Under the pieces are notes generated by a model, which saw only the letters and a list, made by a program, of their open reading frames with translations, ran no database searches and was not told the origin of the DNA. Below are positions 13,144-60,732 of a DNA stretch of 64,000 nucleotides, one piece after another; position 1 is the first letter of the stretch, and each line of letters opens with the position of its first letter. The position numbers and the translations under genes are program-made. Origin of the DNA: a bacterium OM1 bin76 (GTDB taxonomy: Bacteria > Actinomycetota > Acidimicrobiia > Spongiisociales > ZC4RG35). The DNA lies in NCBI GenBank assembly GCA_002238785.1, contig MPNA01000009.1:8189-72188 (forward strand), in the 5' to 3' direction.

Positions 13144-15234
13144 TTGTCGGCATTGGCCAGGTTGCTGAGGCCGAGGACGGTGGCCCTGGTGGGTGGGGGC
13201 TTGTTGGACCAGTTGGTGGACTCCTGTCGGCAGATCGGATTCGCCGGCGAAGTGTGGCCGGTGAATCCCCATCGTCGCCAGGTGTCGGGTCTTCGGTGCT
13301 TCCCTGCCCTCGAGGACCTTCCAAGTCCTCCCGACGCGGTCTTTCTGGCCGTAAACCGCAGGCGGACCATTGAAGCGGTGGAGACGCTTGCCAGGATGGG
13401 AGCGGGGTCGGCGGTGTGCTATGCGTCCCTCTTCGCGGAGCATGGTGAAGATGGATCCGGTCACCAGCGCCGGTTGGTGGAAGCGGCGGGAGGAATGCCG
13501 ATTCTGGGCCCCAACTGCTACGGGCTGATCAATGCGCTGGACCGGGTGGCGCTGTGGCCGGATCAGTCGGGGTGTCATCCCGTCCCAGAGGGAATGGCGC
13601 TCATCTCCCAAAGCGGCAATGTCGGACTGAACATGACGTTCCAGCGGCGCCGGCTTCCGGTCTCGCACCTGGTGTCGGTGGGAAATCAGGCAGTGGTGGG
13701 GATAGAAGACGTGATGGCGGAACTCCTCGAGGACCCCCGGGTCAAGGGCATCGGGTTGTTCCTGGAGGCGGTCAGGGATCCCGGTCGGTTCCTGGATGTG
13801 ACGCTCCGCGCCCTATCGGCTCGGATTCCGGTGGTGGCCCTCCTGGTGGGCAAGTCGCGCCGGGGGGCGGAGATCGCCCGCAGTCACACCGCTTCGATGA
13901 GCGGAATGGCCGACGCCTACCGGGCGCTGTTCGACCGGGGAGGGGTGATCGGGGTGAGCACCCTGCCGGAATTGCTGGAGACCCTGGCAGTGATGGTCGG
14001 CGCCGGACCTCTGCCCGGCAACCGGATCGTTTCCATGTCCTGTTCGGGAGGGGAGGCGTCATACGTGGCGGACCTGGCCGACGGGCGCCACTTGGACTTT
14101 GCTCCCTTCCCCCAGGGACAGCAGCGGAGCGTGAGCCGGATTCTGGACGGAAGGGTGGCGGTCGGGAATCCGTTGGACTACCACACTTTCATCTGGGACG
14201 ACCGGCGCCGCCTGGAGCAGTTGTTCGGTGAGGTCATGGCCGGTCCACAGGACGCCACCATGCTGGTTTTGGACGTTCCTGAAGCGAAAGGGGACTTCTC
14301 GGCTTTCCGGAAGACCGCCCGGGCCATGATCGCCGCCGGTGCGGCTTGCGGGCAACCCGCCCCGGGGGTGTCCCGCCTGCCCGGAAACCCCGCCCGCCGA
14401 GGGGCCCGGGCGCGGGGGGGCGGGGGGGTCGCCGGCCTGCCGGAAAACCTCTCCGGCGAAGTGGCCCGGGAGTTGGCGGACGGTGGGGTGACTGCGGTGC
14501 GAGGGATCGAGGAAGCGTTGGCCGGGCTGGAGGCGGCCGTGCGGTGGGGCGAGCGGGTGCGTGCCGGCGCACCTCATTACCCGGCGCCGGTCCCTCCCCC
14601 TGGTCACCGGACGATCCACCTCAACGAAGTCCAGGCCAAGGCTCGCCTCGCCTCCTGGGGTGTGCCGGTTCCCCGGGGCGCCGCGGCGCCGGCGGAGAGA
14701 TTGGGCGCGGCGGCCGAGGAGATCGGGTATCCCTTGGTGGTCAAGGTGCTGGGCTTTGATCACAAGACGGAGCGGGGAGGGATCCGGGCGGGCATGGCGA
14801 CACCCCGGGATCTGGATGAGGCTGTCACGAGCATGTCAGAGGGGTACCAGGGACTCTTCCTGGTCGAGGAGATGGTTGGCGAGGTGGTCGCCGAATTGCT
14901 GGTCAGCGTCCGGCGCCAGTGGCCGGTCGGTTGGCTGGTCACCCTGGGCGGGGGAGGGGTGCTGGCCGAGTTGCTGGATGATCTCGCCCACTTCCTGGCG
15001 CCGGTCGGCCGTGGGGAGGTCGTGGAGGCCTTGGAGACACTCAGAGTTGGCCGACTGCTGGCAGGCTATCGAGGTGGGGCTCCCGCCGACCTCGGGGTGT
15101 GCGCAACGGTGATCTGCAACCTGGTAAACGGGGCCCTGGGTGATGGTGATGTGGTGGAGATGGAGGTGAATCCCCTGCTGGTCACGGCTTCGGAAGCGGT
15201 GGCGGTGGACGCACTGTTGAGCGTGACTCATTGA
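13144..15234 (+). CDS. Acyl-CoA synthetase, NDP-forming (acetate--CoA ligase family: CoA-binding plus succinyl-CoA synthetase-like plus ATP-grasp domains)
   Basis: CoA-binding Rossmann (TVALVGGG ... PVNP), ligase-CoA domain (ILGPNCYG), C-terminal ATP-grasp. TTG start at 13144 just after the ACAD stop. It contains a G-rich low-complexity segment at 14395-14420. Confidence 0.65.
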   Translation: MSALARLLRPRTVALVGGGLLDQLVDSCRQIGFAGEVWPVNPHRRQVSGLRCFPALEDLPSPPDAVFLAVNRRRTIEAVETLARMGAGSAVCYASLFAEHGEDGSGHQRRLVEAAGGMPILGPNCYGLINALDRVALWPDQSGCHPVPEGMALISQSGNVGLNMTFQRRRLPVSHLVSVGNQAVVGIEDVMAELLEDPRVKGIGLFLEAVRDPGRFLDVTLRALSARIPVVALLVGKSRRGAEIARSHTASMSGMADAYRALFDRGGVIGVSTLPELLETLAVMVGAGPLPGNRIVSMSCSGGEASYVADLADGRHLDFAPFPQGQQRSVSRILDGRVAVGNPLDYHTFIWDDRRRLEQLFGEVMAGPQDATMLVLDVPEAKGDFSAFRKTARAMIAAGAACGQPAPGVSRLPGNPARRGARARGGGGVAGLPENLSGEVARELADGGVTAVRGIEEALAGLEAAVRWGERVRAGAPHYPAPVPPPGHRTIHLNEVQAKARLASWGVPVPRGAAAPAERLGAAAEEIGYPLVVKVLGFDHKTERGGIRAGMATPRDLDEAVTSMSEGYQGLFLVEEMVGEVVAELLVSVRRQWPVGWLVTLGGGGVLAELLDDLAHFLAPVGRGEVVEALETLRVGRLLAGYRGGAPADLGVCATVICNLVNGALGDGDVVEMEVNPLLVTASEAVAVDALLSVTH

Positions 15235-25715: not shown

Positions 25716-27003
25716 GGGCCGCCTCCGCGAGGGCGCCGTCCAGGTCTGCCAGTATGTCCACGATGTCCTCCAGTCCCACCGAGATGCGAATGGTATCGTC
25801 TCCCACCCCCGCCGCCGCCCGGGCCTCGGGGGAGACCTGCTGGTGGGTGGTGGAGGCGGGGTGGATCACCAAGGTCTTGGCGTCTCCCACATTGGCGAGG
25901 TGACTGGCGAGCCGGATCGATTCGATGAATCTCACTCCCGCTTCGAATCCCTTCTTGAGGCCGAAGGTGAACACCGCACCCGGGCCGGCCGGGGTGTACT
26001 TCTCCACCAGGTCCCTGCCGGGGCTGTCAGGAAAGATCGGGTAGCTCACCCAGGAGACGGCCGGGTGTTCGTACAGGAACACCGCCACCTCCCGGGCGTT
26101 TTGTATGTGACGCTCCATTCGCAGGGGGAGCGTCTCCAGTCCCATCAGCAGGAGAAAGGAGTTGAAGGGGGAGATGGCCGCTCCCACATCGCGCAACAAT
26201 TCGGCCCGGGCCTTGGTGAGATAGGCGTACTCACGAAAGTTCTCCCAGAAACGGAGCCCGTGGTAGGCGGGAGAAGGGTCGGTCATCACCCCGAAACGTC
26301 CGCTGTCCCAGGGAAACAGGCCGGACTCCACGATCGCCCCGGCGATCACCACACCGTGGCCGCCGATGAACTTGGTGGCGGAATGGACTACGATGTCCGC
26401 CCCCCATTCGAAGGGTCGGCACAGCCACGGAGACGCGAAGGTGTTGTCGATCATCAGCGGGATTCCGTGGGAGTGGGCAAGATCGGCGATCGCCTCCAGG
26501 TCGAGTACATCTCCCCGGGGGTTTCCGATCGTCTCTCCGTAAACCAACTTGGTGCGGGGGGTGATGGCCTCCTCGATGTTCTCGAGGCGTGAGGCGTCCA
26601 CGAAGGTGGTGTGGATTCCCATCCGCCGCAGGGTCACGTCGAATTGCGTGATGGTCCCGCCGTACAGGTTGCGGGCAGCCACGATCTCATCCCCTTCCTG
26701 GCAGAGGGTGAGCACCGCCACCAACTGGGCAGCCTGTCCCGAAGCGGTGGCTAAGCCACCCAGGCCCCCTTCCAGGGAAGCCAGGCGCTCCTCGAAGGCG
26801 GCGGTGGTGGGGTTGCTGATCCTGGTGTAGATATCACCGTAGTTCTGGAGCGCGAACAGGTCGGCGGCCGACTGAGCGTCTTCGAAGACAAAGGAACTGG
26901 TGGCGTAGATGGGCATTGCCCGGGCGCCCGTCTCGGGATCGGGCGGTTGTCCGGCGTGGATGGCCCGGGTGGAGAAGCCTGCTGACTCTTCGTTAAAAAC
27001 CAC
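25708..27003 (-). CDS. metY: O-acetylhomoserine aminocarboxypropyltransferase / sulfhydrylase
   Basis: Cys/Met-metabolism PLP enzyme: lysine pocket SATKFIGGHG, NPRGDVLD. GTG start at 27003. Confidence 0.85.
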   Translation of the reverse strand: MVFNEESAGFSTRAIHAGQPPDPETGARAMPIYATSSFVFEDAQSAADLFALQNYGDIYTRISNPTTAAFEERLASLEGGLGGLATASGQAAQLVAVLTLCQEGDEIVAARNLYGGTITQFDVTLRRMGIHTTFVDASRLENIEEAITPRTKLVYGETIGNPRGDVLDLEAIADLAHSHGIPLMIDNTFASPWLCRPFEWGADIVVHSATKFIGGHGVVIAGAIVESGLFPWDSGRFGVMTDPSPAYHGLRFWENFREYAYLTKARAELLRDVGAAISPFNSFLLLMGLETLPLRMERHIQNAREVAVFLYEHPAVSWVSYPIFPDSPGRDLVEKYTPAGPGAVFTFGLKKGFEAGVRFIESIRLASHLANVGDAKTLVIHPASTTHQQVSPEARAAAGVGDDTIRISVGLEDIVDILADLDGALAEAARV

Positions 27004-27206
27004 AGGCCGGAGTCTAGGGATACCCTTGCTCCGGCCTGCAGCGTATCGGAGGGTTGTCCTTACTGTCCGTTCTGACCGGTGGCGATCGGAATCTTGCGGG
27101 GCCGAGATGAGGCCGCCACCGGGATGGTGAGAGTCAGGACTCCATTGGTATAGGAACTGGTCGTCTCGGAGATGTCGAGATCATTGCCGATCACGAACTT
27201 GCGGCG
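26997..27206. repeat. Direct repeat copy 1 (about 210 bp), paired with 29201-29410. Includes a terminator hairpin at 27003-27038.
   Basis: Near-identical to 29201-29410 at an offset of 2204 bp. It is identical over the about 125 nt covering the hsp20 3' coding part, with several mismatches in the last codons and the 3' UTR hairpin (caggccggag...ctccggcctg). Confidence 0.85.
27060..27206 (-). pseudogene. Truncated 3' fragment of a small heat-shock protein (Hsp20) gene inside repeat copy 1
   Basis: Minus-strand translation gives ...FRRKFVIGNDLDISETTSSYTNGVLTLTIPVAASSRPRKIPIATGQNGQ*, the same C-terminus as the intact Hsp20 at 29264-29653. There is no upstream continuation. Confidence 0.7.
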
Positions 27207-27374: not shown

Positions 27375-28505
27375 GTGACTGCCGGAAGAGAACTGCACCT
27401 TCCTGATCTTGCGATCGAGGGTTTCCGCGGTATCGACGAACTCGCGATTCCCCGCCTGGGACGCGTAAACCTGATCACCGGACCGAACGCCGTGGGCAAG
27501 ACCACGGTCTTGGACGCGGTGCGCATTTACGCTTCCCGAAGCGACGATCGGGTGCTGTCCGACCTCCTGACTGTGCGGGAGGAACTATCTGCCGGCACAG
27601 ACGAAGAGGGTGTTCCATGGCGCGAGCCGGATTGGTCCGCCCTCTTCCATGGTCGACAGATTTCAGCAGGTACCCCCATAACGGTTCGATCCGGTGGCGA
27701 CCAACTCATTGTCCAAGAGCACTACGCCAACCGTGAAGAGGCATCACACATCAGTCAACTCTATTTCGAATTCGGTGTGAGTGACCACATTAGGGTGCTG
27801 ACAGTCACATTCCGAGGTCAACAGTGGACGTTGCCATGCTTGATTGAACCCGATGTGGATTTCGCTGGTCGGCGGGACTGGAGAAGACGGCGCAGATTCG
27901 GGTCGGATGACTCACTTCCATCGAAACTCACCTGCGAGTCGCTGGGTCCTGGCGCTTTGACTAATACACAGTTGGCTCGGTTCTGGGACGAAGTTGCATT
28001 GACTGACCACGAAGATCGGGCTACCCGCGCCTTGAGCTTGGTGCTGGGAGATACTGTGGACCGTGTCACTATGGTCGGCGATAATGGCCCGAATCGCAGG
28101 GGCGGTGGACGCCGGGTTGTGGTAAAACTGCGAGGTTTCCGAGGGCGGGTCCCACTCAAGAGTCTCGGTGATGGCGCCTTGCGCATGTTTGGCGTTGCAT
28201 TGGCATTATCCAACAGCAGGAACGGGCTCTTGCTCGTGGACGAGGCAGAGAACGGAATCCATCACTCCGTCCAACCAGACTATTGGCACATGGTCTTCCG
28301 CACTGCTTTTGAGAACAACGTTCAGGTTCTGGCGACTACGCATAGCTGGGACTGCGTCACGGGTTTTGCCAAGGCTGCGGCAGCGAACGAGGATGTTGAA
28401 GGTGTCCTTGTCCGTCTCGATAAGGTCGGCGAGAGTATCCAGGTCGTCCATTACCCGGAGGAAGAGGTTAGGGTCGCCGCCGAGCAGGGCATTGAGGTCA
28501 GGTAG
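27375..28505 (+). CDS. ABC-type AAA ATPase (AAA_21/AAA_15-like; OLD-family/PARIS AriA/AbiLi-like ATPase component)
   Basis: Walker A GPNAVGKTT, ABC signature-like SLGDGALRMF, Walker B LLLVDEAENGIHH, H-loop ATTHS. Lower GC3 than its neighbours. Confidence 0.8.
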   Translation: MTAGRELHLPDLAIEGFRGIDELAIPRLGRVNLITGPNAVGKTTVLDAVRIYASRSDDRVLSDLLTVREELSAGTDEEGVPWREPDWSALFHGRQISAGTPITVRSGGDQLIVQEHYANREEASHISQLYFEFGVSDHIRVLTVTFRGQQWTLPCLIEPDVDFAGRRDWRRRRRFGSDDSLPSKLTCESLGPGALTNTQLARFWDEVALTDHEDRATRALSLVLGDTVDRVTMVGDNGPNRRGGGRRVVVKLRGFRGRVPLKSLGDGALRMFGVALALSNSRNGLLLVDEAENGIHHSVQPDYWHMVFRTAFENNVQVLATTHSWDCVTGFAKAAAANEDVEGVLVRLDKVGESIQVVHYPEEEVRVAAEQGIEVR

Positions 28506-28507
28506 AT

Positions 28508-29146
28508 TTGCCCACTCCTGGTGCGTCGGGGCAAGTTTTGCTGGTCGAGGGCCAAGACGATAAGCACGTCGTCAAGCATCTTTGCCGCGCCACAGGATCA
28601 ATGCCGGATTTCAACATCGAGGTTAAGGGTGGTCTGTACAACCTTCTCAGCGCCATTCCAGTGGAGGTCAAAGCTCCCGGTCGGAAGACTGTTGGAATCA
28701 TGGTTGATGCCAATGATGATCAACAGGCCCGATGGCAAGCGCTAGCGGACCGGTTAGGGAAGGTGGATGTCGCGCTTCCAGGCGATCTCGCTCCCAGTTG
28801 GACAATCATTGAGGGAAGCCACGAAGTCAATCGTCCCCGCATCGGGGTGTGGCTCATGCCTGACAACGTGTCGCCTGGCGAGTTGGAGGACTTCATTGCA
28901 GGCATGATTCCACAGGACGATCCTGTGTGGCCATTGTCTTGTGAATATATTGACGGTATCCCCGAGCCTCGCAAATTCAGCGAGAAAAAGGTCCGGAGGG
29001 CTGAAGTTCACGCCTGGCTGGCCACCCGCAGGGAACCGCGGCGGATGGGGGAGGCGATAAGGACACAAGACTTGGATGTGGGGGAGGACACCTGCAGGAG
29101 GCTTGTGGAATGGCTCCGTCAACTCTTCACGGATCCAGGTTCGTGA
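28508..29146 (+). CDS. Small TOPRIM-like protein (DUF4276/DUF4435-like partner of the ATPase; split OLD-family nuclease component)
   Basis: N-terminal VLLVEGQDDKHVV (TOPRIM catalytic Glu) and IMVDANDD (DxD metal site). TTG start 2 nt after the ATPase stop. 212 aa. Confidence 0.6.
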   Translation: MPTPGASGQVLLVEGQDDKHVVKHLCRATGSMPDFNIEVKGGLYNLLSAIPVEVKAPGRKTVGIMVDANDDQQARWQALADRLGKVDVALPGDLAPSWTIIEGSHEVNRPRIGVWLMPDNVSPGELEDFIAGMIPQDDPVWPLSCEYIDGIPEPRKFSEKKVRRAEVHAWLATRREPRRMGEAIRTQDLDVGEDTCRRLVEWLRQLFTDPGS

Positions 29147-29200: not shown

Positions 29201-29410
29201 AAACCACAGGCCGGAGTCTGGGGATACCCTTGCTCCGGCCTGCAGCGTATCGGTTGGCTGTCCTTACTCTCCGTTCTGCGAGGTGGCGATCGGAATCTTG
29301 CGGGGCCGAGATGAGGCCGCCACCGGGATGGTGAGAGTCAGGACTCCATTGGTATAGGAACTGGTCGTCTCGGAGATGTCGAGATCATTGCCGATCACGA
29401 ACTTGCGGCG
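29201..29410. repeat. Direct repeat copy 2 (hsp20 3' end plus terminator hairpin at 29207-29242)
   Basis: See copy 1. This copy is continuous with the intact hsp20 gene. Confidence 0.85.
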
Positions 29411-34403: not shown

Positions 34404-35432
34404 GTGATAGGCAAGAAGCCACATTCAGGTGGCCCTAGCCGTAGGATCCGAGCGAACGTCGGCGGAAGTCGGCGTTCGCTCGGACTCGCCCTGGCGATCG
34501 TGGCCATCAGCATCGTCATGACCATGGTCAGCCCGTACTTCTTCGCGGCAGGCAACTTCCTGAACGTAGCCCGGGCGGTGGCGATCACCGGGATCGTGGC
34601 GGCAGTCTCCACCCCGATGCTGATCTCCGGCAACGTCGATCTGTCGGTGGCAGCCACGATGGGCCTCTCGGGGATGACTGCCGGGGCGCTTTTGGTCCAG
34701 GAACTCCCGGTGCCGGTGGCGATTCTCGGGGCCTTGGTAGTTGGCCTGCTCATGGGGTTTGTCAACGCGGTGATCGTTGTGAAGTTCCAGGTCAACTCGC
34801 TGATTGCAACAATCGGCACGGCCTTTATCGCCAGGGGTGTGGCGTTCCTGGTAAACAGTGGAAGATCGATATTCATCCCTGCCGAGTCCTATGTGAATCT
34901 CGGCCAGGGGTCGGCGCTGGGGATTCCGAAACCTGTTTTCTATACGGTGGTGGTCTTTGTCCTGATCGGCTTCGTGATGCGATATACCAAAGTGGGCGCC
35001 CACATCTATGCGGTGGGCAGCAGTCCCGAAGCGGCGCGTCGGGCCGGGATCAGCGTACCGAAGATCACCTGGGGCGTCTTCCTGGCGTCAGGGTTTTTCT
35101 CGGCGCTGGCCGGGGTGGTTCTCACCAGCCAAGCCGGATCGGCCTTTCCCTACGGGGGCCAGGGTAGGGAACTGGAGATCATCGCGGCGGTGATTGTGGG
35201 CGGAACGGCTCTGACCGGAGGTCGGGGTTCGATCACCGGCACGATTCTGGGGGTGGTGCTGTTGGGTATTATCGCAAACTCCCTCAACCTGGTCGGACTT
35301 CCTGTGCCTTACCAGGACATCTCGAGAGGCTTGCTGCTGGTCGCAGCGGTGGCCACCGATCAACTGTCCGGACGGACGCTGGGAGGAAGGGGCGTCTTCC
35401 GGGGACTTCGTGCGGGAACGGAGGAATCCTGA
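34404..35432 (+). CDS. ABC transporter permease (BPD_transp_2, ribose/xylose type)
   Basis: GTG start. About 9-10 TM helices. Conserved motifs (GNVDLSVAATMGLSGM). Confidence 0.8.
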   Translation: MIGKKPHSGGPSRRIRANVGGSRRSLGLALAIVAISIVMTMVSPYFFAAGNFLNVARAVAITGIVAAVSTPMLISGNVDLSVAATMGLSGMTAGALLVQELPVPVAILGALVVGLLMGFVNAVIVVKFQVNSLIATIGTAFIARGVAFLVNSGRSIFIPAESYVNLGQGSALGIPKPVFYTVVVFVLIGFVMRYTKVGAHIYAVGSSPEAARRAGISVPKITWGVFLASGFFSALAGVVLTSQAGSAFPYGGQGRELEIIAAVIVGGTALTGGRGSITGTILGVVLLGIIANSLNLVGLPVPYQDISRGLLLVAAVATDQLSGRTLGGRGVFRGLRAGTEES

Positions 35433-36205
35433 TGTCGGTGAAAAAGGGCCGAGTGGTAATTGAAGGAATCGGTCTCAGTAAGTCCTACGGGCCGATCATC
35501 GCGCTTGACAACGTGGACATCGAAATCCGCGCGGGGGAGATAACGGCGTTGGTCGGTGACAACGGGGCAGGCAAATCAACACTGATCAAGATCCTGGCCG
35601 GGGCCGTCATCCCCGATGCGGGTGAGGTTCGGGTGAACGGTGAAAGGGTGGTGCTCAGGACCCCGGCCGACGCCCGGGATCTGGGTATCGAAACCATTTT
35701 TCAGGACTTGGCGCTGGCTCCGGATCGCGATGTGGTCACCAATCTGTTCCTGGGGAGGGAGGTGCTGAGGAAGGGGATGGCAGGAAAATTCGGCATGCTT
35801 GACAGAGGGGCGATGGAAGCCCAGGCTCTCACCCAAATAGATGCCCTGGGAGTCAACATTCCCCGATCCACAGGCGTTTCAATCGGGGAGATGTCAGGCG
35901 GACAGCAGCAGTCGGTAGCAGTCGCACGGGGGGCGTTCTGGGCGAAGACGGGCATGTTTATGGACGAGCCGACCGCTGCCCTGGGAGTGCGAGAGTCCTC
36001 ACGGGTGCTTCAGCTTGCCCGTCAAATCGCCCAGGGTGGGGTGGCGGTGGTGCTGATCAGCCACATCCTTCCGCATGTAATGGAATTGGCTGACCGGGTG
36101 GTCGTCCTGCGACACGGTCAGAAGGTGGCTGAACTCACCGAGGACATCTCCATGGACCGGTTGGTCACTCTGATTGTGGGGGTGGACGCAGACGACGCAA
36201 CATAG
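35432..36205 (+). CDS. ABC transporter ATP-binding protein (single NBD)
   Basis: Walker A GDNGAGKST, signature SGGQQQSVAVARG, Walker B MFMDEPTAAL. Confidence 0.85.
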   Translation: MSVKKGRVVIEGIGLSKSYGPIIALDNVDIEIRAGEITALVGDNGAGKSTLIKILAGAVIPDAGEVRVNGERVVLRTPADARDLGIETIFQDLALAPDRDVVTNLFLGREVLRKGMAGKFGMLDRGAMEAQALTQIDALGVNIPRSTGVSIGEMSGGQQQSVAVARGAFWAKTGMFMDEPTAALGVRESSRVLQLARQIAQGGVAVVLISHILPHVMELADRVVVLRHGQKVAELTEDISMDRLVTLIVGVDADDAT

Positions 36206-42224: not shown

Positions 42225-42234
42225 GGCCAAGCAA

Positions 42235-42335
42235 ACACGGGAGCTCGGTGAGACCGGGCTGAGAGGGAGGATGGATTCCTCCGACCGTTAGCACCTGATC
42301 CGGGTAATGCCGGCGAAGGAAGCTTTCGTTGGCAA
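42235..42335 (+). promoter_or_regulatory. TPP (THI-box) riboswitch
   Basis: Contains the conserved CUGAGA element and ACCUGAUCCGGGUAAUGCCGGCGAAGG (the pyrimidine-sensor / J3-2 consensus), immediately upstream of the thiamine-type ABC SBP. Confidence 0.8.
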
Positions 42336-42378
42336 GTCCGGGTTTCTGGGGCTCCCTGCACAAGACAAGGAGTCCCAA

Positions 42379-43491
42379 ATGCGTACCAGACTGGCCGTTT
42401 TCACAAGCATCGTTGCACTGCTTCTTGCTGCCTGCGGCGACGGGGACACGGACGACACCGGCGAAGAGGCGACCGCGCCAACTACGACGGCCGCGCCAAC
42501 TACGACGGCTACAACTCAAGCCCCCGCAGTCCCCGAGGAACTGACCATCATCAGTCACGACTCATTTGCAGGTGGCGTCACCGAGGAGACTTTTGCATCT
42601 TTTACCGCCGAGACCGGTGTCAGGGTGAAGGTCCTGCCGGCGGGAGATACCGGATCACTTGTCAACCAGGCCATTCTGACCAAGGACAACCCCTTGGCAG
42701 ATGTCCTGTTCGGCGTGGACGACACCTTCCTGTCACGGGCCTTGGATGGTGGGATCTTCATCTCACACCGTTCCTCTCTGCTGGACCAGACCCCGGAGAA
42801 CATTCGTCTTGATCCCCAAAACCGGGTGACTCCCATCGACTTTGGCGATGTGTGCCTCAACTACGACCGCGACGTCATGTCCGATGCCGATGCCCCCGGC
42901 AGCCTCGCGGACCTCATCACCGAGCAGTACCGGGGCCAATTGGTGGTGGAGAGCCCTGCCACTTCTTCTCCGGGGTTGGCCTTTCTGCTGTCCACGATTG
43001 CAGTATTCGGAGAGGACGGATGGAAGGACTACTGGCAAGCCTTGGTAGACAACGACGTGGAGGTGGTGCCCGACTGGGACACCGCCTACTACGCTTCCTT
43101 CTCCCGATGGGGAGGCGACCGGCCGCTGGTGGTCTCCTACGCATCCTCGCCACCCGCCGAAGTGATCTTTTCCGATCCGCCCACCGATGTGGCGCCCACC
43201 GGGGTGGTGACCGACGGCTGCTACCGGCAGATCGAGTTCGCCGGGATCCTGGAGGGCACCGACTTCCCCGACGCCGCCGGCGACCTGATCGACTACATGC
43301 TGTCCGTGGAATTCCAGGAGCAGATCCCGCTCACCTGGTTCGTGTTCCCGGCCAACACCGCAGCCGCACTGCCTTCCGAATTCGTTGAGCACACCGTTTT
43401 GCCCGACCAACCGGCGAACGTCGATCCGGCCCTCATTGACGCCAATCGAGAACGATGGATACAGGAGTGGACCGAGTTGGTGCTGGGATAG
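42379..43491 (+). CDS. Thiamine ABC transporter substrate-binding lipoprotein (TbpA/ThiB-like, PBP2 Fe3+/thiamine family)
   Basis: Lipoprotein signal (LLLAACGDG), Thr-rich linker, TbpA-like fold. aaggag RBS. The TPP riboswitch lies upstream. Confidence 0.75.
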   Translation: MRTRLAVFTSIVALLLAACGDGDTDDTGEEATAPTTTAAPTTTATTQAPAVPEELTIISHDSFAGGVTEETFASFTAETGVRVKVLPAGDTGSLVNQAILTKDNPLADVLFGVDDTFLSRALDGGIFISHRSSLLDQTPENIRLDPQNRVTPIDFGDVCLNYDRDVMSDADAPGSLADLITEQYRGQLVVESPATSSPGLAFLLSTIAVFGEDGWKDYWQALVDNDVEVVPDWDTAYYASFSRWGGDRPLVVSYASSPPAEVIFSDPPTDVAPTGVVTDGCYRQIEFAGILEGTDFPDAAGDLIDYMLSVEFQEQIPLTWFVFPANTAAALPSEFVEHTVLPDQPANVDPALIDANRERWIQEWTELVLG

Positions 43492-43546: not shown

Positions 43547-45152
43547 GTGACCTACCGTCGGGTGGCTGCGGGGGTGGCGGTGGCTTTCCTGGGATATCTG
43601 TTCCTCTATCCCCTAGCCCGCATCCTGGGACTATCGCTGGGACTCGAGGGCGCGGGGGGCGCCTTCGGGGAAGTCCTTTCCAATCCGGGTCTGCGAAAGG
43701 CGCTGTGGTTCTCGGTCTGGCAGTCTGCGGCGTCGGTGGCTCTGACCCTGGTGGCGGCAGCCCCCATAACCTGGGCTGTGTCGAGGTTCAGGTTTCCCGG
43801 CCGCGCTCTGGCCAAGGCCCTGGTGACGGCGCCCTTCGTGTTGCCCACGGTGGTGGTGGCGTCGGCCTTTCTCTCCTTGGGTATCGGAGGAAGCGTGTGG
43901 GCCATTCTTGCCGCCCATGTCTTCTACAACGTGGCGGTGGTGGTCCGGACCGTGGGGGGTGTGTGGGCTCGGATCGACCGTTCTCTGTTCGACGCCGCCC
44001 GGATCTTGGGCGCCAGTCCCCGGCAGGTCTTCTGGAGCTTGACCCTTCCCCTGCTCCGTCCTGCCTTGGCCGCCTCCTCTGCCATCGTGTTCTTGTTCAC
44101 ATTCACGTCCTTCGGGGTGGTGCTGATCCTGGGAGGACTCCGGTACCGGACGCTGGAAGTTGAGATCTGGCAGCAGACCGTGGTGTTCCTGAATCTTCCG
44201 GCCGCCGCTGCCCTGGCGATCTTGCAATTGGTGGGGGTCACCGCGGTGCTGGCCTGGTACTCCCGATACCAAGAGCGGCAGTCAGTGGGCTTGGAGTTGG
44301 CGGCGGAGGACCGCAACCTGCAGCGTCCCGGCACGCTCGGGCAGCGATTGTCGGTGGGAGTGGCGGTCGGTGGGACGCTTGCCGCACTCTCGGTTCCCCT
44401 GGTGATGCTGGTGGCCAGGTCGCTGCACTCCGGGGGCGCCGGATGGCTTTATCTGATGGATCCGGGACCACTGGCGGTTACACCGGGCCGGGCGATGGTC
44501 AACTCCTTGCTTTACGCCCTGGCCACCGCCTTGGTGGCGGTGACGGTGGGATTGTGCGCCTCCACGGTGATCGTCTCCGGGAAAGGCCGCGCTGCCCGAT
44601 GGTTCGATGTGGTGTTGATGCTCCCACTGGGGGCTTCGGCGGTGACGGTGGGATTCGGAATGCTGGTGGCTCTGGACTGGCCGGTCGACCTGAGGGCCAC
44701 GGTGGTGCTGGTGCCTCTTGCCCACGCCTTGGTGGCCACACCGTTCGTGGTGCGCATTGTGACCCCCATATTGAGGTCGGTGCGCGCCGGTCTGCGGGAG
44801 GCGGCCGCGGTGCTGGGGGCCTCTCCCTGGCGGGTCTTCCGGGAGATCGACCTGCCGATTGCGGCTCCCCCCCCCCCCGCGGGGGGGGGGGGGGCGGGGG
44901 GGGGCGGGCCCGGGGGGGCGGGGGGGGGCGGGATTCGCGGCGGCAGTCTCCCTGGGCGAGTTCGGGGCGACGGCTTTCATCGCCCGTCCCGGCACCATAA
45001 CGGTTCCTGCCCTGATCTTCAGGCTGTTGGGACGGCCCGGAGCGGTGAGCTACACCGGCGCCATGGCCATGGCCGTGGTGCTGGCGCTAATGGTCACGTT
45101 GCTGATCATGCTGATAGACCGCGTCCGACTGGGGGAGTTGGGGAGCTTCTGA
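43547..45152 (+). pseudogene. Thiamine/iron-type ABC permease (two-domain ThiP-like), disrupted by a frameshift in a G/C homopolymer tract
   Basis: Both permease halves are recognisable, but the C-terminal part (AVSLGEFGATAFIARPGTITVPALIF...) is in another frame (ORF 44859-45152). The join is the tract at 44868-44936. The 808-aa single ORF to 45973 is an artefact. Confidence 0.6.
44868..44936. repeat. Anomalous G/C-only homopolymer tract (C12-GC-G13-C-G9-C-GGGCCC-G7-C-G9)
   Basis: Read directly. It is palindromic at its 5' end, and the plus strand has G4-forming potential. It causes the permease frameshift. Confidence 0.9.
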
Positions 45153-45293: not shown

Positions 45294-45746
45294 ATGCGCA
45301 AAGCAATATTTGCGGTGGCGGTGGTGCTGCTGCTGGGAGTTGGATCCGTGGCGGTGGCCCGGGTGGGCGACGGCTGGGGCAAGGTTGGAGACGCAGCCGA
45401 TCGAGTCGCCATTCTGGAAGAGGCTCTGAGCGATCTGGTGACGGATGGCACTATCACACAAGACCAGTCCGACGCTATTGTCTCAGCGCTCGAAGAGAAA
45501 GGGGAAGAGATGGCAGAACAGCGTCAACAGTTGAAGGACCAACTCGAGTCCTTCTGGGAAGACGATGTGTTGACCGCCGAAGAGATCGAGCAACTTCCCT
45601 TTGCAGATCGAATTCTCGAAGCCGAAGAGTTGTCCGACGCGTTGGAGGACGGCCAGATCACCAAGGAAGAGATGGAAGAACTCCGCTCAGCCAAACCCGG
45701 TTTTCACAAGGGCCGCGGGGGACGTCACGGCGGAGGGGGCCGCTAA
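45294..45746 (+). CDS. Secreted acidic hypothetical protein (signal peptide, coiled-coil-like, Gly-rich C-terminus)
   Basis: RBS gaaaggagaagg. Signal peptide MRKAIFAVAVVLLLGVGSVAVA. Followed by a hairpin at 45803-45840. Confidence 0.5.
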   Translation: MRKAIFAVAVVLLLGVGSVAVARVGDGWGKVGDAADRVAILEEALSDLVTDGTITQDQSDAIVSALEEKGEEMAEQRQQLKDQLESFWEDDVLTAEEIEQLPFADRILEAEELSDALEDGQITKEEMEELRSAKPGFHKGRGGRHGGGGR

Positions 45747-54372: not shown

Positions 54373-55611
54373 ATGACCTCCTCCTTGACTTGGCTTGACT
54401 ACTCGGAGAAAGACCGGCGTCGTGCCATTGAAGTCATCGACCTGTTTCGGGAGACCGGTACCCTCGACGAGCTTGGGGTGGCCTCCGTTCGCAACAGCTT
54501 TTCGGACCTGTTCTTCCCCGGGACCAGCACGGTCCAGACTCGGGCGTGCTATCTCCTGCTCGTACCGTGGACATTCCTGCGGCTCGAACGGTTGAAGTTC
54601 TCATCAAGCAAGGTCGAGGCGAGGGCTCGGCAGGCAGAACTAAGACTCAACCGGAGGATGCTGGCAGGGGACGACAGTCGGGGCGTGTTCGGGTCCCAAG
54701 CGGGGGATGCTCTGAAACGGCTCCCGAGCGAGGTCTATTGGGGTGGGCTCCGAAGTTGGGGTATCTTTACGTTCTCAGGTCATAAGTGGGCATACTTCCG
54801 ATCGCTTGACGGTTTCTACCGAAGTCGCGGCCGGTTTCAGAGCATGTCGCCAGATGCGGAGGGCAGGAGCGCTCCCCCAGCGAACTGGCACCCCCACCTC
54901 CCTGTCCCTCCGTCCGGATTCCCCTATAAGAACGTCTCGGTGACACTCCGCCGCCAGGATGCCGAGTATCTCAGGGAACGGATCCAGGCCCGGCATCCCG
55001 AGAGTCTTTTGGCTGTGCTCGCAGGCCGGGCTAAACCGGAGGACCTCCAGGTGAACCGACCGTGGCACCTTTACCACTTGAGGGAGATGACGCCAGCCCT
55101 TGTAGTGCAGTTGCGCGACGCCGAGTTATTCGCGGTCTGCATGCAAGGGGCGGCCCTCCTCTACAACCTCATGCTCTCCGAACTGCAGCAGCATGAGCAG
55201 CGCATCGAGACCTACCGCAGCGAACTAGAGAATTGGGCCGCCGCCGCTAATGGGTTGGCGACGGCTATTGAGGATTGGCGATTGGATGGGGTGTGGCGGG
55301 TAGTTCGAGCACAGGGCAGGTCTCCGGCTTTTCCGATGCAGTCCTTTGTGGAGCGCTGGGTTCGAAACCTCAGGCGGGGTGGGCCTGAGGCTATCGTCCC
55401 GACCAACTCCGCGGCGCGGGGTCTCGTGCGGGAGCGTGAGGCGCAACTCAAGCGGGGTCGTGCGCGGTTATCAAGTTCTCGGCATCTCGAACTGTGGGGC
55501 GGACGGTCCGGCACGGGACGGATGACCTACCGGTGGCGCGTAGCCAAGGGGCTTCTCAAGGACATCTTCGATGGGCTGGCGCGGAGCGAGGGCGATGCTG
55601 GGAACCCGTGA
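54373..55611 (+). CDS. Hypothetical protein, first gene of a putative three-gene helicase/PLD defense-like operon
   Basis: 412-aa ORF, ATG start, no recognisable motif. Lower GC3 than the flanks. Its 3' end overlaps the next gene. Confidence 0.55.
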   Translation: MTSSLTWLDYSEKDRRRAIEVIDLFRETGTLDELGVASVRNSFSDLFFPGTSTVQTRACYLLLVPWTFLRLERLKFSSSKVEARARQAELRLNRRMLAGDDSRGVFGSQAGDALKRLPSEVYWGGLRSWGIFTFSGHKWAYFRSLDGFYRSRGRFQSMSPDAEGRSAPPANWHPHLPVPPSGFPYKNVSVTLRRQDAEYLRERIQARHPESLLAVLAGRAKPEDLQVNRPWHLYHLREMTPALVVQLRDAELFAVCMQGAALLYNLMLSELQQHEQRIETYRSELENWAAAANGLATAIEDWRLDGVWRVVRAQGRSPAFPMQSFVERWVRNLRRGGPEAIVPTNSAARGLVREREAQLKRGRARLSSSRHLELWGGRSGTGRMTYRWRVAKGLLKDIFDGLARSEGDAGNP

Positions 55612-57502
55612 GCGGACCCTCCTTCTTGATAGCCTGCGCCCCCCACCCGGCTATCGGCTGCGGCGCGCGGTAGGGACTAGCTTCACGCTGGACCTAATGG
55701 CACTTCTGACAGCGCCACTTGCCTTTACATTCTTCGATGCCCACGACCAAGATGGCGCGCCCGTGGCCGACCCTGTGGCTTTGCTCGAGGCGCTCCGGCG
55801 GCATGCCGAGAAGATCACGCTCTTTTGTCAGGCTGGTGCGATCGGTGTGCCGGGGCCGGACCAGCCACTCTTGGCTTACCTGGAGGGCTCGGTCATTGAA
55901 GTTCAACCGCGCCAGGAGGGAGGGATCTTCCATCCGAAGCTTTGGGTGCTCAACTTTCAGGCTGAGGAGCGGCCAGCTATCTACCGTGTATTGTGCCTAT
56001 CCCGCAACCTGACTTTCGCCCGGACATGGGATACTTGCCTTCGCCTACAGGGGCGACTTGTAACACGCCAGCGCGGATTCGGGAGGAACAAGCCGTTCGC
56101 GGATCTGCTTTTGGCGCTCCCAAAGCTGGCAACACGATCGGTTACGGCAGAGTCTCGGGAGGACCTCAAGCGAATGGCCTACGAGATTCGGAGGGTGAAA
56201 TTCCAGACGCCCGGATCCTTCCAGGATTTCCGTGTCCACAATTTCGGCCTGGGGCGTAGGCGTGGATGGCCTTTTCCAAAAGGTGGGCGGGGCCTTGTGG
56301 TTTCGCCTTTTATCAGCGGCTCCACTGTTCGAAATCTCGTTCATGATCACGGACTCGATGTTCTTATTTCCCGTCCGGAGGCATTCGAGGATGTAGCCCG
56401 TGGGACGGGACGAGAGGTTCTGCCTACGGAGTGCTACGTCCTCTCCTCCGCTGCGGATCTCAACTCCCGAGACGGGGAGGAAGAAAAACCACAAGACGGA
56501 TCGCCACCTCTTGAAAACGAGGTCGAACTATCGGGCCTCCACGCTAAGTTGTTCCTGTTCGAGAACGGCCGGGAGTCTCATCTGTTCGCAGGTTCGGCGA
56601 ACGCTACTGACGCCGCCTTTCGCTCCAACATGGAGGTGCTGGTTGAACTGGTTGGAAGGACGAAGGATTGCGGCATCGCTTCGTTCCTCGGTCCGGAAGA
56701 CGACCCGAGGCTCGAAACCATCCGATCGCTACTACAAAGCTATCGCCTACCAGATTGTTTGGGACCGGAGCCACCCGAGAGCAAATCGAAAGAGAGGGTC
56801 GACCGGTTGGCGCGGATCCTCGCGGCTGTACCGCTCACCGCGAAAGTCTGCGAGATAGATGAGGGGCACCGGTGGGATATGAGATTGTCTGGAGTCTTTA
56901 CGGGGTTCCCCGCCGGAGTAGAGGTCAAGGTGTGGCCCGCGACACTCTCTGCGGAGGCGGCCCAGCGGATTGCGGATCCGGCCGGGCAGCGAGACGAGAC
57001 AGATGGTTGGACCAACGATCCGATGGACCCGGTGGCCATCTTCAAAGGGCTCTCCTTCGAGGCGCTGACCACCTTCTTCGCCTTCGAGGTTTCGCTGCGG
57101 GAAGAATCGCACAAAGTTCGACGTCGCTTCGTAGCCACCGCTGAGTTGATAGGGGCACCTGAAAACCGGAGGGAGCGCTTGCTGCGATCACTCTTGAAAG
57201 ATCGCCGTCGCGTGATCCAGCTCTTATTCCTCATCCTCATGGGTGAAGGCGCTGACGTGTCAGTGTTTGTGCGGGCCGCTAAGGATGGTGAAGACGCTTT
57301 CCGGGGATCCTTCGGAGGTTGGGACCGGGAGGCCCTGCTTGAGGCTCTTCTCCGGTGCCTGAGTCACAAGCCGACGCGAATCGACGAGGCCGCTGCGTTG
57401 ATTGCCGACTTGACAAGGACGCCGGAAGGAGAGGACCTTCTCCCTGAGGGTCTGAACGAGATATGGGAACCAGTTTGGGCGGCCCGTCAGGAACTGGAGT
57501 GA
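55595..57502 (+). CDS. Phospholipase-D-family (dual HKD) nuclease-like protein
   Basis: Two HKD-type motifs: FHPKLWVLNF and LHAKLFLFENGRESHLFAGSANATDAAF (HxK...GSxN). A good ggagcgaggg RBS before the ATG at 55595, with an alternative ATG at 55571. Confidence 0.7.
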   Translation: MLGTRERTLLLDSLRPPPGYRLRRAVGTSFTLDLMALLTAPLAFTFFDAHDQDGAPVADPVALLEALRRHAEKITLFCQAGAIGVPGPDQPLLAYLEGSVIEVQPRQEGGIFHPKLWVLNFQAEERPAIYRVLCLSRNLTFARTWDTCLRLQGRLVTRQRGFGRNKPFADLLLALPKLATRSVTAESREDLKRMAYEIRRVKFQTPGSFQDFRVHNFGLGRRRGWPFPKGGRGLVVSPFISGSTVRNLVHDHGLDVLISRPEAFEDVARGTGREVLPTECYVLSSAADLNSRDGEEEKPQDGSPPLENEVELSGLHAKLFLFENGRESHLFAGSANATDAAFRSNMEVLVELVGRTKDCGIASFLGPEDDPRLETIRSLLQSYRLPDCLGPEPPESKSKERVDRLARILAAVPLTAKVCEIDEGHRWDMRLSGVFTGFPAGVEVKVWPATLSAEAAQRIADPAGQRDETDGWTNDPMDPVAIFKGLSFEALTTFFAFEVSLREESHKVRRRFVATAELIGAPENRRERLLRSLLKDRRRVIQLLFLILMGEGADVSVFVRAAKDGEDAFRGSFGGWDREALLEALLRCLSHKPTRIDEAAALIADLTRTPEGEDLLPEGLNEIWEPVWAARQELE

Positions 57503-60500
57503 TCACCCCAAGAGTGGGCGAGCGCCCCGACACCAATGCCGTGCTCAACGGTTTGAAGGGGTTCCAGCGAGACACTGTCGAGTACGCATTCGAGCGGCTC
57601 TACCAGGCGCCGGACTCTACGCGCCGCTTCCTGGTTGCCGACGAGGTGGGTCTGGGGAAGACGCTCGTGGCTCGGGGGGTAATCGCCAAAGCTCTCGATC
57701 ACCTTTGGGACGGACCCAGAAGGGTTGAGCAGATCGACATCGTTTACATTTGCTCCAACGCGCAGATTGCCAGACAAAACGTTCGTCGGCTTCAGATCGG
57801 TCGCGGCAAGTTTGTCCGGGCCGCCCGGTTGGGGCTGTTGCCGCAGGAGATCCATGGGTTAAGGGAGAACAGAGTCAACTACCTCGCGCTAACACCCGGA
57901 ACCTCCTTCAACCTGAGGAGCAGTATGGGTACGAAGGAAGAGCGGGTCCTCCTGTATCACCTCTTGCAACGCGTATGGCCGGACTCACGCAAGGGTCCTA
58001 TGAACCTTCTTCAAGGGACGGTGAAGAGGACAGATAACTTCCGCTGGCATCTGAAAGAGTTCAGGCGTTGGAAGAGCGTCGACAACGATCTCGCGAGAGT
58101 CTTCGAGCGGCGACTCATTGAGGAGGGAGAGGGTCTCCGAGGACAGTACGAGGATCTCTGCAAACGATTCTGGCGCAGCCGAAAGCGGGTCCCGTGGCAT
58201 GACCGGCGAAGGCAGATATCCTTCATCGGCCGGCTTCGCACGATGTTGGCCGAGGTCTGTGTCACAGCACTTGAGCCCGACCTCGTGATCCTGGACGAAT
58301 TTCAGCGTTTCAAGCAGTTGCTCGACGGAGGGGATACCACGGCGCTCTTGGCGAAACGGCTCTTCACCTATTCGGACGAGACGACCGACGTTCGTCTCCT
58401 GCTCCTCTCGGCGACCCCCTACAAAATGTACACGTTGCATCACGAAAGCGCCGAGGACGACCATTACGCGGATTTCCTGCGGACCGTAGAATTCCTTGAC
58501 CCGGATCTCAAGAAGAGTGGCACCCTCCGTGGCCTCCTGGATGACTACCGGCAGGCCATGTATCGGATCAAGTCAGGTACAGAGGAACTGCAGCGGATCA
58601 AGGAAGAGATCGAAACCCAGCTCCGCCGCATCATGTCGCGTACAGAGCGGCTTCGAGTCTCCGGGGACGCCCAAGGCATGTTGCGCGAAGTTCCGAATTC
58701 GGGGCTGCAACTCACCCCGGACGATGTAAGGGACTTCTTGGCTCTTCAAGAGATCGGCTACGCAGTGGGACAGCCACGGGTCCTCGAATACTGGAAATCG
58801 GCACCATACCTTCTGAGTTTCATGGACAACTACAAGTTGAAGTCGGAGGTTCTAGCGAGGCTTGACAAGCCAGTGGATGGCGGACTGACCAACCTCTTGT
58901 CCGAAAGCGGACGGGTGTTCCTTTCGTGGGAGGACGTTGAAGCGTACGCTCGACTGGACCCTGCCAACGCTCGTCTGCGGAGCTTGCTCATTTGGCTGGA
59001 GCGCGGCGAGGGATGGAAGCTGCTCTGGCTACCTGCCTCGCTTCCCTATTACCGGGAGTCCGGCGCCTGGAAGGCGGCCCGCGAGCAGCAACTCTCCAAG
59101 CGTTTGATCTTCTCAACCTGGGGCGTGGTTCCCAAAGCCATAGCGAGCATGGTGAGCTACGATGTAGAACGTCGGATCTTCCGGCGCTTCGACAATTCGG
59201 TCCTAAACAGTCCGGAGGAGCGAAAGAAGCGCCGCCCCCTGCTTCGCTTCGCCTATGCGAACGAGCGCCTCACCGGAATGCCGGTCCTAGGCATCCTGTA
59301 CCCCAGTCCCAGCCTCGTCTCACTGGGTGATCCTGTCCCTGTGCCGCAGGACGGGGCTACGTTGGAAGACGCCATTGCCCGTGCCCGGGCGCGGCTCGAA
59401 CCGCCTCTCGGCAGGATTACGGCGCCGTACCTCGACAAACTACGCCAGGACGAGAGTTGGTACTGGGCGGCGCCGATCCTGCTTGATCTCGAGAGACACG
59501 GCGAGTCGACCAGGGAGTGGTTCGCCCGCAGGGATCTTGCACACCGGTGGAGCGGCGCGAAGAAGGAGGACGACGATGAGGGTTCCCGGTGGGTGGAACA
59601 TGTCAGAGAAGCAAGAAGGTTCGTAGACACGGCTTATAGCGGACAGACGGAACTCGGTCGACCGCCCGCGGACCTCTTGGATGTGCTAGCGACGCGATCC
59701 GTGGCTGGCCCTGCGACGACCGCGCTCAGGGCCCTCATACGTGCCTCGGGACCGGAAGCGTCGGTAACCTGCGCGGCCCGGGACGCGGCCGCCTGGATCG
59801 CCTGGAGCTTCCGGGCACTATTCAACCTCCCGGAAGCGACTGCGCTCATCCGAGGAGAGCGGCCCGGGGACGAGACACCCTACTGGCGGCAGGTGGTGGA
59901 TTACTGTGCGGCAGGCAACCTCCAGGCTGTGCTGGACGAGTGGGTTCACACGCTACGGGATCTCGAAGGACTCTTCGCAGCTACGGAAGGGGAAGCCTGG
60001 GAAAGGCTGGCCTTGGTAATGTCAGGAGCGATCTCGCTTCGCACGGGCGCTCCCCGTGTGGACGAAATCCAATCTGGCGATGGTTCCGCGCGGATTGAGA
60101 GCCGCCGTCTACGCAACCACTTTGCCATGCGCTTCGGTGCACAGGAGGGAGACGATGGCAAGGCGGGGGCTCGAGAAGGACAGGTGCGTCAGGCATTCAA
60201 CTCACCCTTCTGGCCTTTTATTCTCGCTTCCACTTCGGTTGGCCAAGAGGGTCTGGATTTCCATGCCTACTGCCATTCCGTCATGCATTGGAACCTGCCA
60301 TCGAATCCGGTCGATCTCGAGCAACGTGAAGGCCGTGTTGATCGCTACAAGGGTCATGCAGTGCGAAAGAACATCGCCGCCAAGTACGGGGGCGACATCC
60401 TCTGCGGCAAGTCGGAGGACGTGTGGTCGGCCCTTTTCGAAGCGGCGCGGGAGCAATCATCCAGCGGACGCGGTCTCGTTCCGTACTGGCTCTTCCCACT

Positions 60501-60732
60501 TTCCGATGGCGCACATATAGAGCGGCATGTCCCGGCCCTGCCCTTGAGCCGAGACGCTTCTCAACTCAAGGCGCTCCAGCGGTCCCTTGCTGTCTACCGA
60601 ATGGTCTTCGGGCAGCCGAGGCAGGACGATCTGACCACGTTTCTGCTTGAGCAGTGCGACCCTGGGACCTTGAGGGACATAGAACCCTTGTTGCGCATCG
60701 ATCTGTGGCCCCGGCCATTGGAACACATGTAG
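57499..60732 (+). CDS. SNF2/RapA-like SF2 helicase with a split ATPase core (about 600-aa insertion between lobes)
   Basis: Motif I LVADEVGLGKT, motif II LILDEFQRF, motif III LLLSATPY near the N-terminus. Motifs V/VI (FILASTSVGQEGLDF, QREGRVDRYKG) near the C-terminus. A GTG at 57499 overlaps the upstream TGA (GTGA) with ggag 5 nt upstream. Alternative ATG at 57463. Confidence 0.7.
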   Translation: MITPRVGERPDTNAVLNGLKGFQRDTVEYAFERLYQAPDSTRRFLVADEVGLGKTLVARGVIAKALDHLWDGPRRVEQIDIVYICSNAQIARQNVRRLQIGRGKFVRAARLGLLPQEIHGLRENRVNYLALTPGTSFNLRSSMGTKEERVLLYHLLQRVWPDSRKGPMNLLQGTVKRTDNFRWHLKEFRRWKSVDNDLARVFERRLIEEGEGLRGQYEDLCKRFWRSRKRVPWHDRRRQISFIGRLRTMLAEVCVTALEPDLVILDEFQRFKQLLDGGDTTALLAKRLFTYSDETTDVRLLLLSATPYKMYTLHHESAEDDHYADFLRTVEFLDPDLKKSGTLRGLLDDYRQAMYRIKSGTEELQRIKEEIETQLRRIMSRTERLRVSGDAQGMLREVPNSGLQLTPDDVRDFLALQEIGYAVGQPRVLEYWKSAPYLLSFMDNYKLKSEVLARLDKPVDGGLTNLLSESGRVFLSWEDVEAYARLDPANARLRSLLIWLERGEGWKLLWLPASLPYYRESGAWKAAREQQLSKRLIFSTWGVVPKAIASMVSYDVERRIFRRFDNSVLNSPEERKKRRPLLRFAYANERLTGMPVLGILYPSPSLVSLGDPVPVPQDGATLEDAIARARARLEPPLGRITAPYLDKLRQDESWYWAAPILLDLERHGESTREWFARRDLAHRWSGAKKEDDDEGSRWVEHVREARRFVDTAYSGQTELGRPPADLLDVLATRSVAGPATTALRALIRASGPEASVTCAARDAAAWIAWSFRALFNLPEATALIRGERPGDETPYWRQVVDYCAAGNLQAVLDEWVHTLRDLEGLFAATEGEAWERLALVMSGAISLRTGAPRVDEIQSGDGSARIESRRLRNHFAMRFGAQEGDDGKAGAREGQVRQAFNSPFWPFILASTSVGQEGLDFHAYCHSVMHWNLPSNPVDLEQREGRVDRYKGHAVRKNIAAKYGGDILCGKSEDVWSALFEAAREQSSSGRGLVPYWLFPLSDGAHIERHVPALPLSRDASQLKALQRSLAVYRMVFGQPRQDDLTTFLLEQCDPGTLRDIEPLLRIDLWPRPLEHM

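Follow-up and report, generated by a model that had tools for sequence, protein, structure and literature searches.

The closest described counterpart of the operon studied here is the ThiBPQ importer of E. coli and Salmonella, with which the 64-kb stretch of DNA that was analysed (hereafter referred to as the window) shares a TPP riboswitch, a ThiB-type binding protein, and a permease that is fused from two domains and resembles ThiP in length and architecture (Table 1). Unlike that importer, the operon of the window and those of its 17 closest species lack thiQ, and the permease does not reach the ThiP equivalog cutoffs. In the window, the permease gene is moreover split by a tract that consists of nothing but G and C.

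Two kinds of described sequence resemble this tract. Like phase-variable tracts, it is made of long C/G homopolymers that lie inside a coding sequence and shift its frame, but it is compound, forms no length ladder, and is not conserved in relatives. Like the poly-G/poly-C junk of contig ends, it is a compound of some tens of nucleotides with a Cn-GC-Gn core, has C-runs beside the left and G-runs beside the right unique sequence, fails to recur from one assembly to the next, and coincides with a contig breakpoint. It differs from such junk in being internal, 44.9 kb into 64 kb, with two contig ends joined across it. From a comparison of assembled contigs, we conclude that the tract at 44867-44932 is almost certainly a mis-assembly and not part of the organism's DNA.

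Table 1. Features of the window discussed in the text, with their coordinates (position 1 is the first letter of the window)
Feature	Position	Strand	Evidence
Second apparent artefact, corrupted native copy and restart	14358..14431	.	Comparison with other assemblies
TPP riboswitch aptamer (RF00059)	42227..42338	+	67.1 bits vs gathering score 54.3; full model 1-105
ThiB-like thiamine-type ABC substrate-binding lipoprotein	42379..43491	+	TIGR01254, 229.2 bits vs cutoff 93.4; SBP_bac_6
ThiP-like fused two-domain ABC permease, 5' part, codons 1-440	43547..44866	+	Equal to the intact 520-aa gene elsewhere
G/C-only tract, 66 nt, almost certainly artefactual	44867..44932	.	Sequence and run statistics
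Putative re-entry point into the true sequence	44921..44932	.	11/12 match to native GGTGGGGGCGGG
Permease, 3' part	44933..45152	+	A at 44933 completes native codon GGA; stop 45150-45152

A G/C-only tract splits the permease gene

The tract reads C12 G C G14 C G9 C G3 C3 G7 C G9 C G3 and contains a perfect C12-GC-G12 palindrome together with at least four long G runs. It is the longest G/C-only run in the 64-kb window, the runners-up being 28 and 25 nt long, and lies far above chance (expected number of runs of ≥66 nt at 62% GC, ~5e-10). The initial annotation, made from the letters of the window, had recognized this run but placed it at 44868-44936 with a length of 69 nt and a second homopolymer of G13; the run itself stood, while its span and length had to be corrected (Table 1), positions 44933-44935 being ATT and hence outside it, and the second homopolymer is G14.

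That the tract frameshifts the permease, as had been proposed, was confirmed. The frame that opens at 43547 holds to 44866, and the tract exceeds the native sequence described below by 43 nt (66 vs 23 nt), which is 1 mod 3 and thus shifts the permease by +1. The C-terminus (…FAAAVSLGEFGATAFIARP…) was likewise recovered where it had been expected, in the different frame of the ORF at 44859-45152, with F-A-A-A-V-S-L-G-E-F-G… encoded from 44934 onward. Neither the read-through product (808 aa) nor the C-terminal ORF (97 aa) had an exact match on record, and a search with 30 nt of the left flank was negative in genome contigs and in metagenome contigs.

Other assemblies carry a native 23-nt allele and an intact permease

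Exact-protein look-ups with the ThiB-like protein and with the 150-aa protein encoded downstream of the permease returned ~20 contigs each from ENA MEGAHIT (k141), JGI, and Logan assemblies, and the exact ThiB-like protein was present in 19 contigs. SRR8092555 and kindred runs are metagenomes of the sponge Aplysina aerophoba, comprising several libraries from one specimen (preprint), and the original study of these libraries is that of Slaby et al. 2017 (PMC5649159). On both sides of the tract, the contigs from other assemblies agree with the window in every base (100% identity), for >8 kb to the left and for >6.8 kb to the right.

At the tract site itself, ten loci whose flanks equal those of the window (L001-3, L010-14, L018, L019) carry a native sequence of 23 nt, CGCGCCACCGCGGTGGGGGCGGG. 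These loci stem from the same Acidimicrobiia population, sampled by no fewer than six sequencing libraries or assemblies (ENA MEGAHIT ERZ27241788; JGI 3300027328/27327/2150/2151; Logan SRR8092555/8092709/8092710). Among the contigs that cover the site, whether MEGAHIT, JGI, Logan, or NCBI, none has the 66-nt tract, and the window alone has it. The native 23-mer, whose longest homopolymer is G5 and whose GC content falls within the top 0.2% of 23-mers, restores an uninterrupted permease of 520 aa (…REIDLPIAA-RATAVGAG-FAAAVSLGEFGATAFIARP…), in which the junction reads …DLPIAA-RATAVGAG-FAAAVSLGEFG…; the 520-aa gene is also found in the NCBI MAG GCA_026713945.1 (protein MCY4649021.1). As judged from these contigs, the true sequence of the site is CGCGCCACCGCGGTGGGGGCGGG, predicted to encode R-A-T-A-V-G-A-G within an intact permease of 520 aa. 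The eight residues lie in a transmembrane segment just past the EAA loop in the second permease domain.

We further scanned species-representative genomes and retrieved 79 loci encoding relatives of the permease. The close set comprised 17 Acidimicrobiia species at 83-95% identity (L140-L154, L157, L192), complete long-read chromosomes and MAGs (several of each) being among them, and several of these MAGs carry names suggesting sponge or coral hosts. Exactly 8 codons, R-A-[T/V/A]-A-V-G-[A/G]-G, occupy the site in all 17 species, with synonymous variation, and an insertion at the site was found in none of them (0/17). The spacing is the same in more distant relatives of the permease. The initial annotation had expected orthologues to supply 20-25 missing codons; both the native sequence and the 17 relatives have 8.

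A second corrupted site in the window

To compare the whole window with another assembly, we used 69 kb of the independent 121-kb MEGAHIT contig ERZ27241788 k141_191403, rebuilt from four loci. The 64-kb window and this contig differ in two places only, the tract at 44867-44932 and a segment at 14358-14431. In the latter, an ungapped copy of the native sequence carries 19 substitutions in its first aligned piece (12 AT>GC and 7 G<->C) and two further T>G changes just past that piece. Of these 21 changes, none is toward A or T, every one being to G or C. The corrupted copy ends in GGGCGCGGGGGGGCGGGGGGG, after which the correct sequence restarts 60 nt back, leaving a surplus of 60 nt that lies in frame inside an ADP-forming acyl-CoA synthetase-like gene (CoA_binding_2 / Succ_CoA_lig / ATP-grasp_5). 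This surplus was absent from the six other assemblies examined there, including NCBI GCA_026713945.1.

On this comparison of sequences, the segment at 14358-14431 appears to be a second assembly error, similar in kind to the tract. We know of no biological process by which a segment that is otherwise base-for-base identical would acquire two lesions like these. The occurrence of both lesions in an otherwise identical 64 kb points to a read tail or graph path whose base calls collapsed to G/C and which was re-joined to the true sequence. The 25-nt G/C run at 14671-14695 was also considered as an artefact but is genuine sequence, since all other assemblies carry it.

Contigs of other assemblies break at the tract site

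Several contigs from other assemblies end or begin at the position of the tract. The left-hand contigs L004, L006, and L007 stop at 44866, 44867, and 44869, respectively (0, 1, and 3 nt into the site), while on the right-hand side L015 starts at native position 11 (CGGTGGGGGCGGG) and L017 at position 12 (GGTGGGGGCGGG); four others (L014, L016, L018, L019) start 16-52 nt upstream of the site. We infer that this very GC-rich spot is where short-read assembly of the population tends to be interrupted. The last 12 nt of the tract, GGGGGGGGCGGG, equal native GGTGGGGGCGGG except for one T>G change, at 44923. The tract therefore ends where a right-hand contig starts, as is expected if the G-rich tail of the left contig overlapped the right contig. 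After the left flank, the terminal bases of L007 are CCC where the native sequence has CGC, a weak difference of one base at a contig end; reads with a poly-C continuation could have been present in at least one library, which would fit either a systematic read error or a real variant.

The 12-nt palindrome CCACCGCGGTGG, which forms the core of the native sequence, recurs at position 8200 of the window, where no assembly breaks, and so the palindrome alone does not account for the break at the thiP site. Restriction at the SacII-like CCGCGG core was rejected as a cause of the break, given that the window contains 37 CCGCGG sites and the palindrome at 8200 is unbroken. As for a hairpin as a cause of dropout, the folding energy of the native site is unremarkable (-24.9 kcal/mol over 103 nt with DNA parameters, a value computed without a shuffle control).

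Similar tracts lie at contig ends in unrelated assemblies

When public metagenome contigs were scanned for C10-GC-G10, the motif was found in at least 120 of them, from many unrelated projects. Among the matches listed, the G/C tract lies ≤150 nt from the sequence end in 99 of 120, compared with 13.5 expected under uniform placement, and is flush with the contig end in 30 of 120. The median G/C-only length among the matches listed is ~50 nt, with interrupted C and G runs as in the window. In the remaining 21 of the 120 matches listed, the tract is >150 nt from the end, indicating that such tracts are occasionally internalised and that the window is not unique in this respect.

The initial annotation had left two readings of the tract side by side. 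The first, a sequencing or assembly artefact, is strongly supported by the 23-nt allele that other contigs carry between identical flanks and by the same type of tract at unrelated contig ends. The second, a G-quadruplex-prone insertion that inactivates the importer, is not supported, the tract being restricted to the window and absent from all 17 related species.

Proposed origin of the tract and alternative explanations

For the mis-assembly, we propose that the end of the left-hand contig would have been extended by erroneous sequence whose bases had collapsed to C and G, and that this junk tip, a degraded read tail of low complexity, would then have been joined to the start of the right-hand contig via the short G-rich overlap GG(T>G)GGGGGCGGG, bridging a break in coverage. 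The outcome would be a degenerate pseudo-duplication, 43 nt over the true length. We infer both the join step, which may have been gap-closing or tip-joining by the assembler or a long-read bridge, and a physical cause of the G/C-biased miscalls. With the tract placed collinear to the left flank, its match to the native sequence that follows exceeds the match at ~99.94% of offsets on both strands of the 69-kb reference. This result is no more than supportive and moderately significant, since any GC-rich target gives a high score to a query made of G and C. The hybrid assembly of Slaby et al. was produced with SPAdes 3.5.0 (single-cell mode, no read error correction) and also used PacBio reads (PMC5649159). 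Such a pipeline would tolerate junk of this sort, if the window stems from that assembly.

The usual two-colour dark-cycle explanation of poly-G (mentioned in 10.1101/2025.07.18.665570) was considered and rejected as the direct cause, because the A. aerophoba libraries are reported as HiSeq2000, a four-colour instrument (PMC5649159). Simple 3' poly-G read tails would also have the opposite orientation, since in the window the left flank leads into a C-run and a G-run leads into the right flank.

The artefact might also have a different source, namely a poorly corrected PacBio long read that bridged an Illumina coverage gap, in place of Illumina tails. This version accords with the published assembly, an Illumina and PacBio RS II hybrid corrected with proovread in which SPAdes merged contigs with long reads (PMC5649159), and with the breaks of Illumina-only assemblies at the very site where long-read bridging would act. 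We nevertheless consider it unlikely. Errors in raw PacBio reads are for the most part indels at random and do not substitute bases directionally toward G/C, whereas the copy at 14358-14431 is ungapped and carries substitutions only, which favours Illumina tails over a long-read bridge. Tracts of the poly-C-GC-poly-G type also occur commonly in assemblies built from Illumina reads alone.

Far less probable is a genuine insertion allele carried by a sub-population of the symbiont, with a net gain of 43 nt, G/C-only, prone to G-quadruplex or hairpin formation, and knocking out the permease. If real, the at least four long G runs and the C12-GC-G12 palindrome would indeed be structure-prone, one left-hand contig (L007) does end in CCC past the left flank, and strain-level variation exists in the specimen, where the PDC-M38 cassette described below is present or absent depending on the assembly. 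However, no assembly except the window carries the insertion, and the 64 kb are identical apart from a second site with G/C-ward corruption and duplication. Moreover, the junction coincides with contig ends elsewhere, the motif is enriched at unrelated contig ends, and no relative shows any change in length at the site. We know of no mutational process that has G/C-ward corruption combined with duplication as its product. That a real minority allele arose at the GC-rich palindromic hotspot (CCACCGCGGTGG) and inactivated the riboswitch-controlled thiamine-type importer is accordingly hard to credit; were it true, the recurrent contig breaks at the site would reflect real heterogeneity and not sequencing dropout.

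A phase-variable homopolymer (a contingency locus that turns the permease on and off by slipped-strand mispairing) has a negligible chance of being correct. C12 and G14 do have lengths that occur in known phase-variable tracts. However, the native allele is free of homopolymers (longest run G5), intermediate lengths number 0 in ~20 contigs and 17 related species, the tract is compound and falls within the final fifth of the gene, in a membrane segment that is conserved, and an in-frame version would still add ~14 Gly/Pro residues to that segment.

Consequences for annotation

Taken as a mis-assembly, the tract has no importance as biology: there is no G-quadruplex insertion and no pseudogenisation, and the permease is intact. 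From this record, an annotator would report the thiamine importer as frameshifted or pseudogenised and could wrongly conclude that a sponge symbiont has lost thiamine uptake. The error at 14358-14431 adds 20 bogus codons in frame, and errors of this in-frame type are much harder to notice. G/C-only runs longer than ~25 nt may serve as a cheap error flag in this assembly and, as indicated by the scan, in many public metagenome assemblies. The record would be corrected by replacing 44867-44932 with the 23-mer and by deleting the 60-nt pseudo-duplication at ~14364-14429.

A riboswitch-controlled thiB-thiP operon without an adjoining ATPase gene

The TPP riboswitch that had been noticed before the operon was verified, with RF00059 scoring above its gathering score directly upstream of the thiB-like gene (Table 1). 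Against the ThiB equivalog model TIGR01276, the ThiB-like protein scores 110 (cutoff 317). The permease has two BPD_transp_1 matches (Pfam) and aligns full-length to ThiP models, all with scores far below the equivalog cutoffs (TIGR01253, 85.6 vs 395), and the NCBI label of its protein MCY4649021.1 is 'iron ABC transporter permease'.

The absence of ThiQ downstream also proved correct, as no ORF with a Walker A motif plus LSGGQ adjoins the operon. The two ABC ATPases of the window are encoded at 15473-16537, in a glycine-betaine-type operon, and at 35432-36205, in a BPD_transp_2-type operon. Within 5 kb of thiB-thiP, an ATPase gene was found neither in the window nor in any of the 17 close species (0/17). 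Nearly all relatives at ≤66% identity (among L155-L218) have an ATPase gene directly after the permease. Within the close clade, the order nucS-thiB-thiP is conserved, and thiB (83-95% amino-acid identity) and thiP (80-89%) are both intact. The initial annotation had hinted that the lack of thiQ reflects decay of the transporter; this hint was not upheld, the absence being clade-wide and thiB and thiP being intact. Gene order and conservation suggest that the ATPase may have been lost or relocated across the clade while the transporter genes were kept intact. The transporter would then probably be in use, with its ATPase encoded elsewhere.

Directly downstream of thiP, positions 45294-45746 encode a protein of 150 aa that begins with a hydrophobic N-terminal segment and whose middle part is acidic and repeat-like. 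It has no match in Pfam or NCBIfam and is patchily conserved, being found in 5 of the 17 close relatives at 50-68% identity.

Candidate defence genes in the window

Two adjacent genes at 27375-28505 (A) and 28508-29146 (B) match the PADLOC candidate defence system PDC-M38 (A, 1.5e-74, also AbiLi-like; B, 2.8e-38). Direct repeats of 210 nt (26997-27206 and 29201-29410; 96% identical), in which a portion of an HSP20 gene is duplicated, bracket this cassette. The assembly ERZ27241794, from the same sponge specimen, is without the cassette and one copy of the repeat, which indicates a presence/absence polymorphism in the population. Further along the window, three consecutive genes at 54373-60732 match PADLOC ZacA (1.3e-119), ZacB (5.1e-163), and ZacC (E = 0, 1129 bits), which we take to be the three genes of the Azaca anti-phage system. 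The segment thus looks like a complete copy of Azaca in a sponge symbiont.
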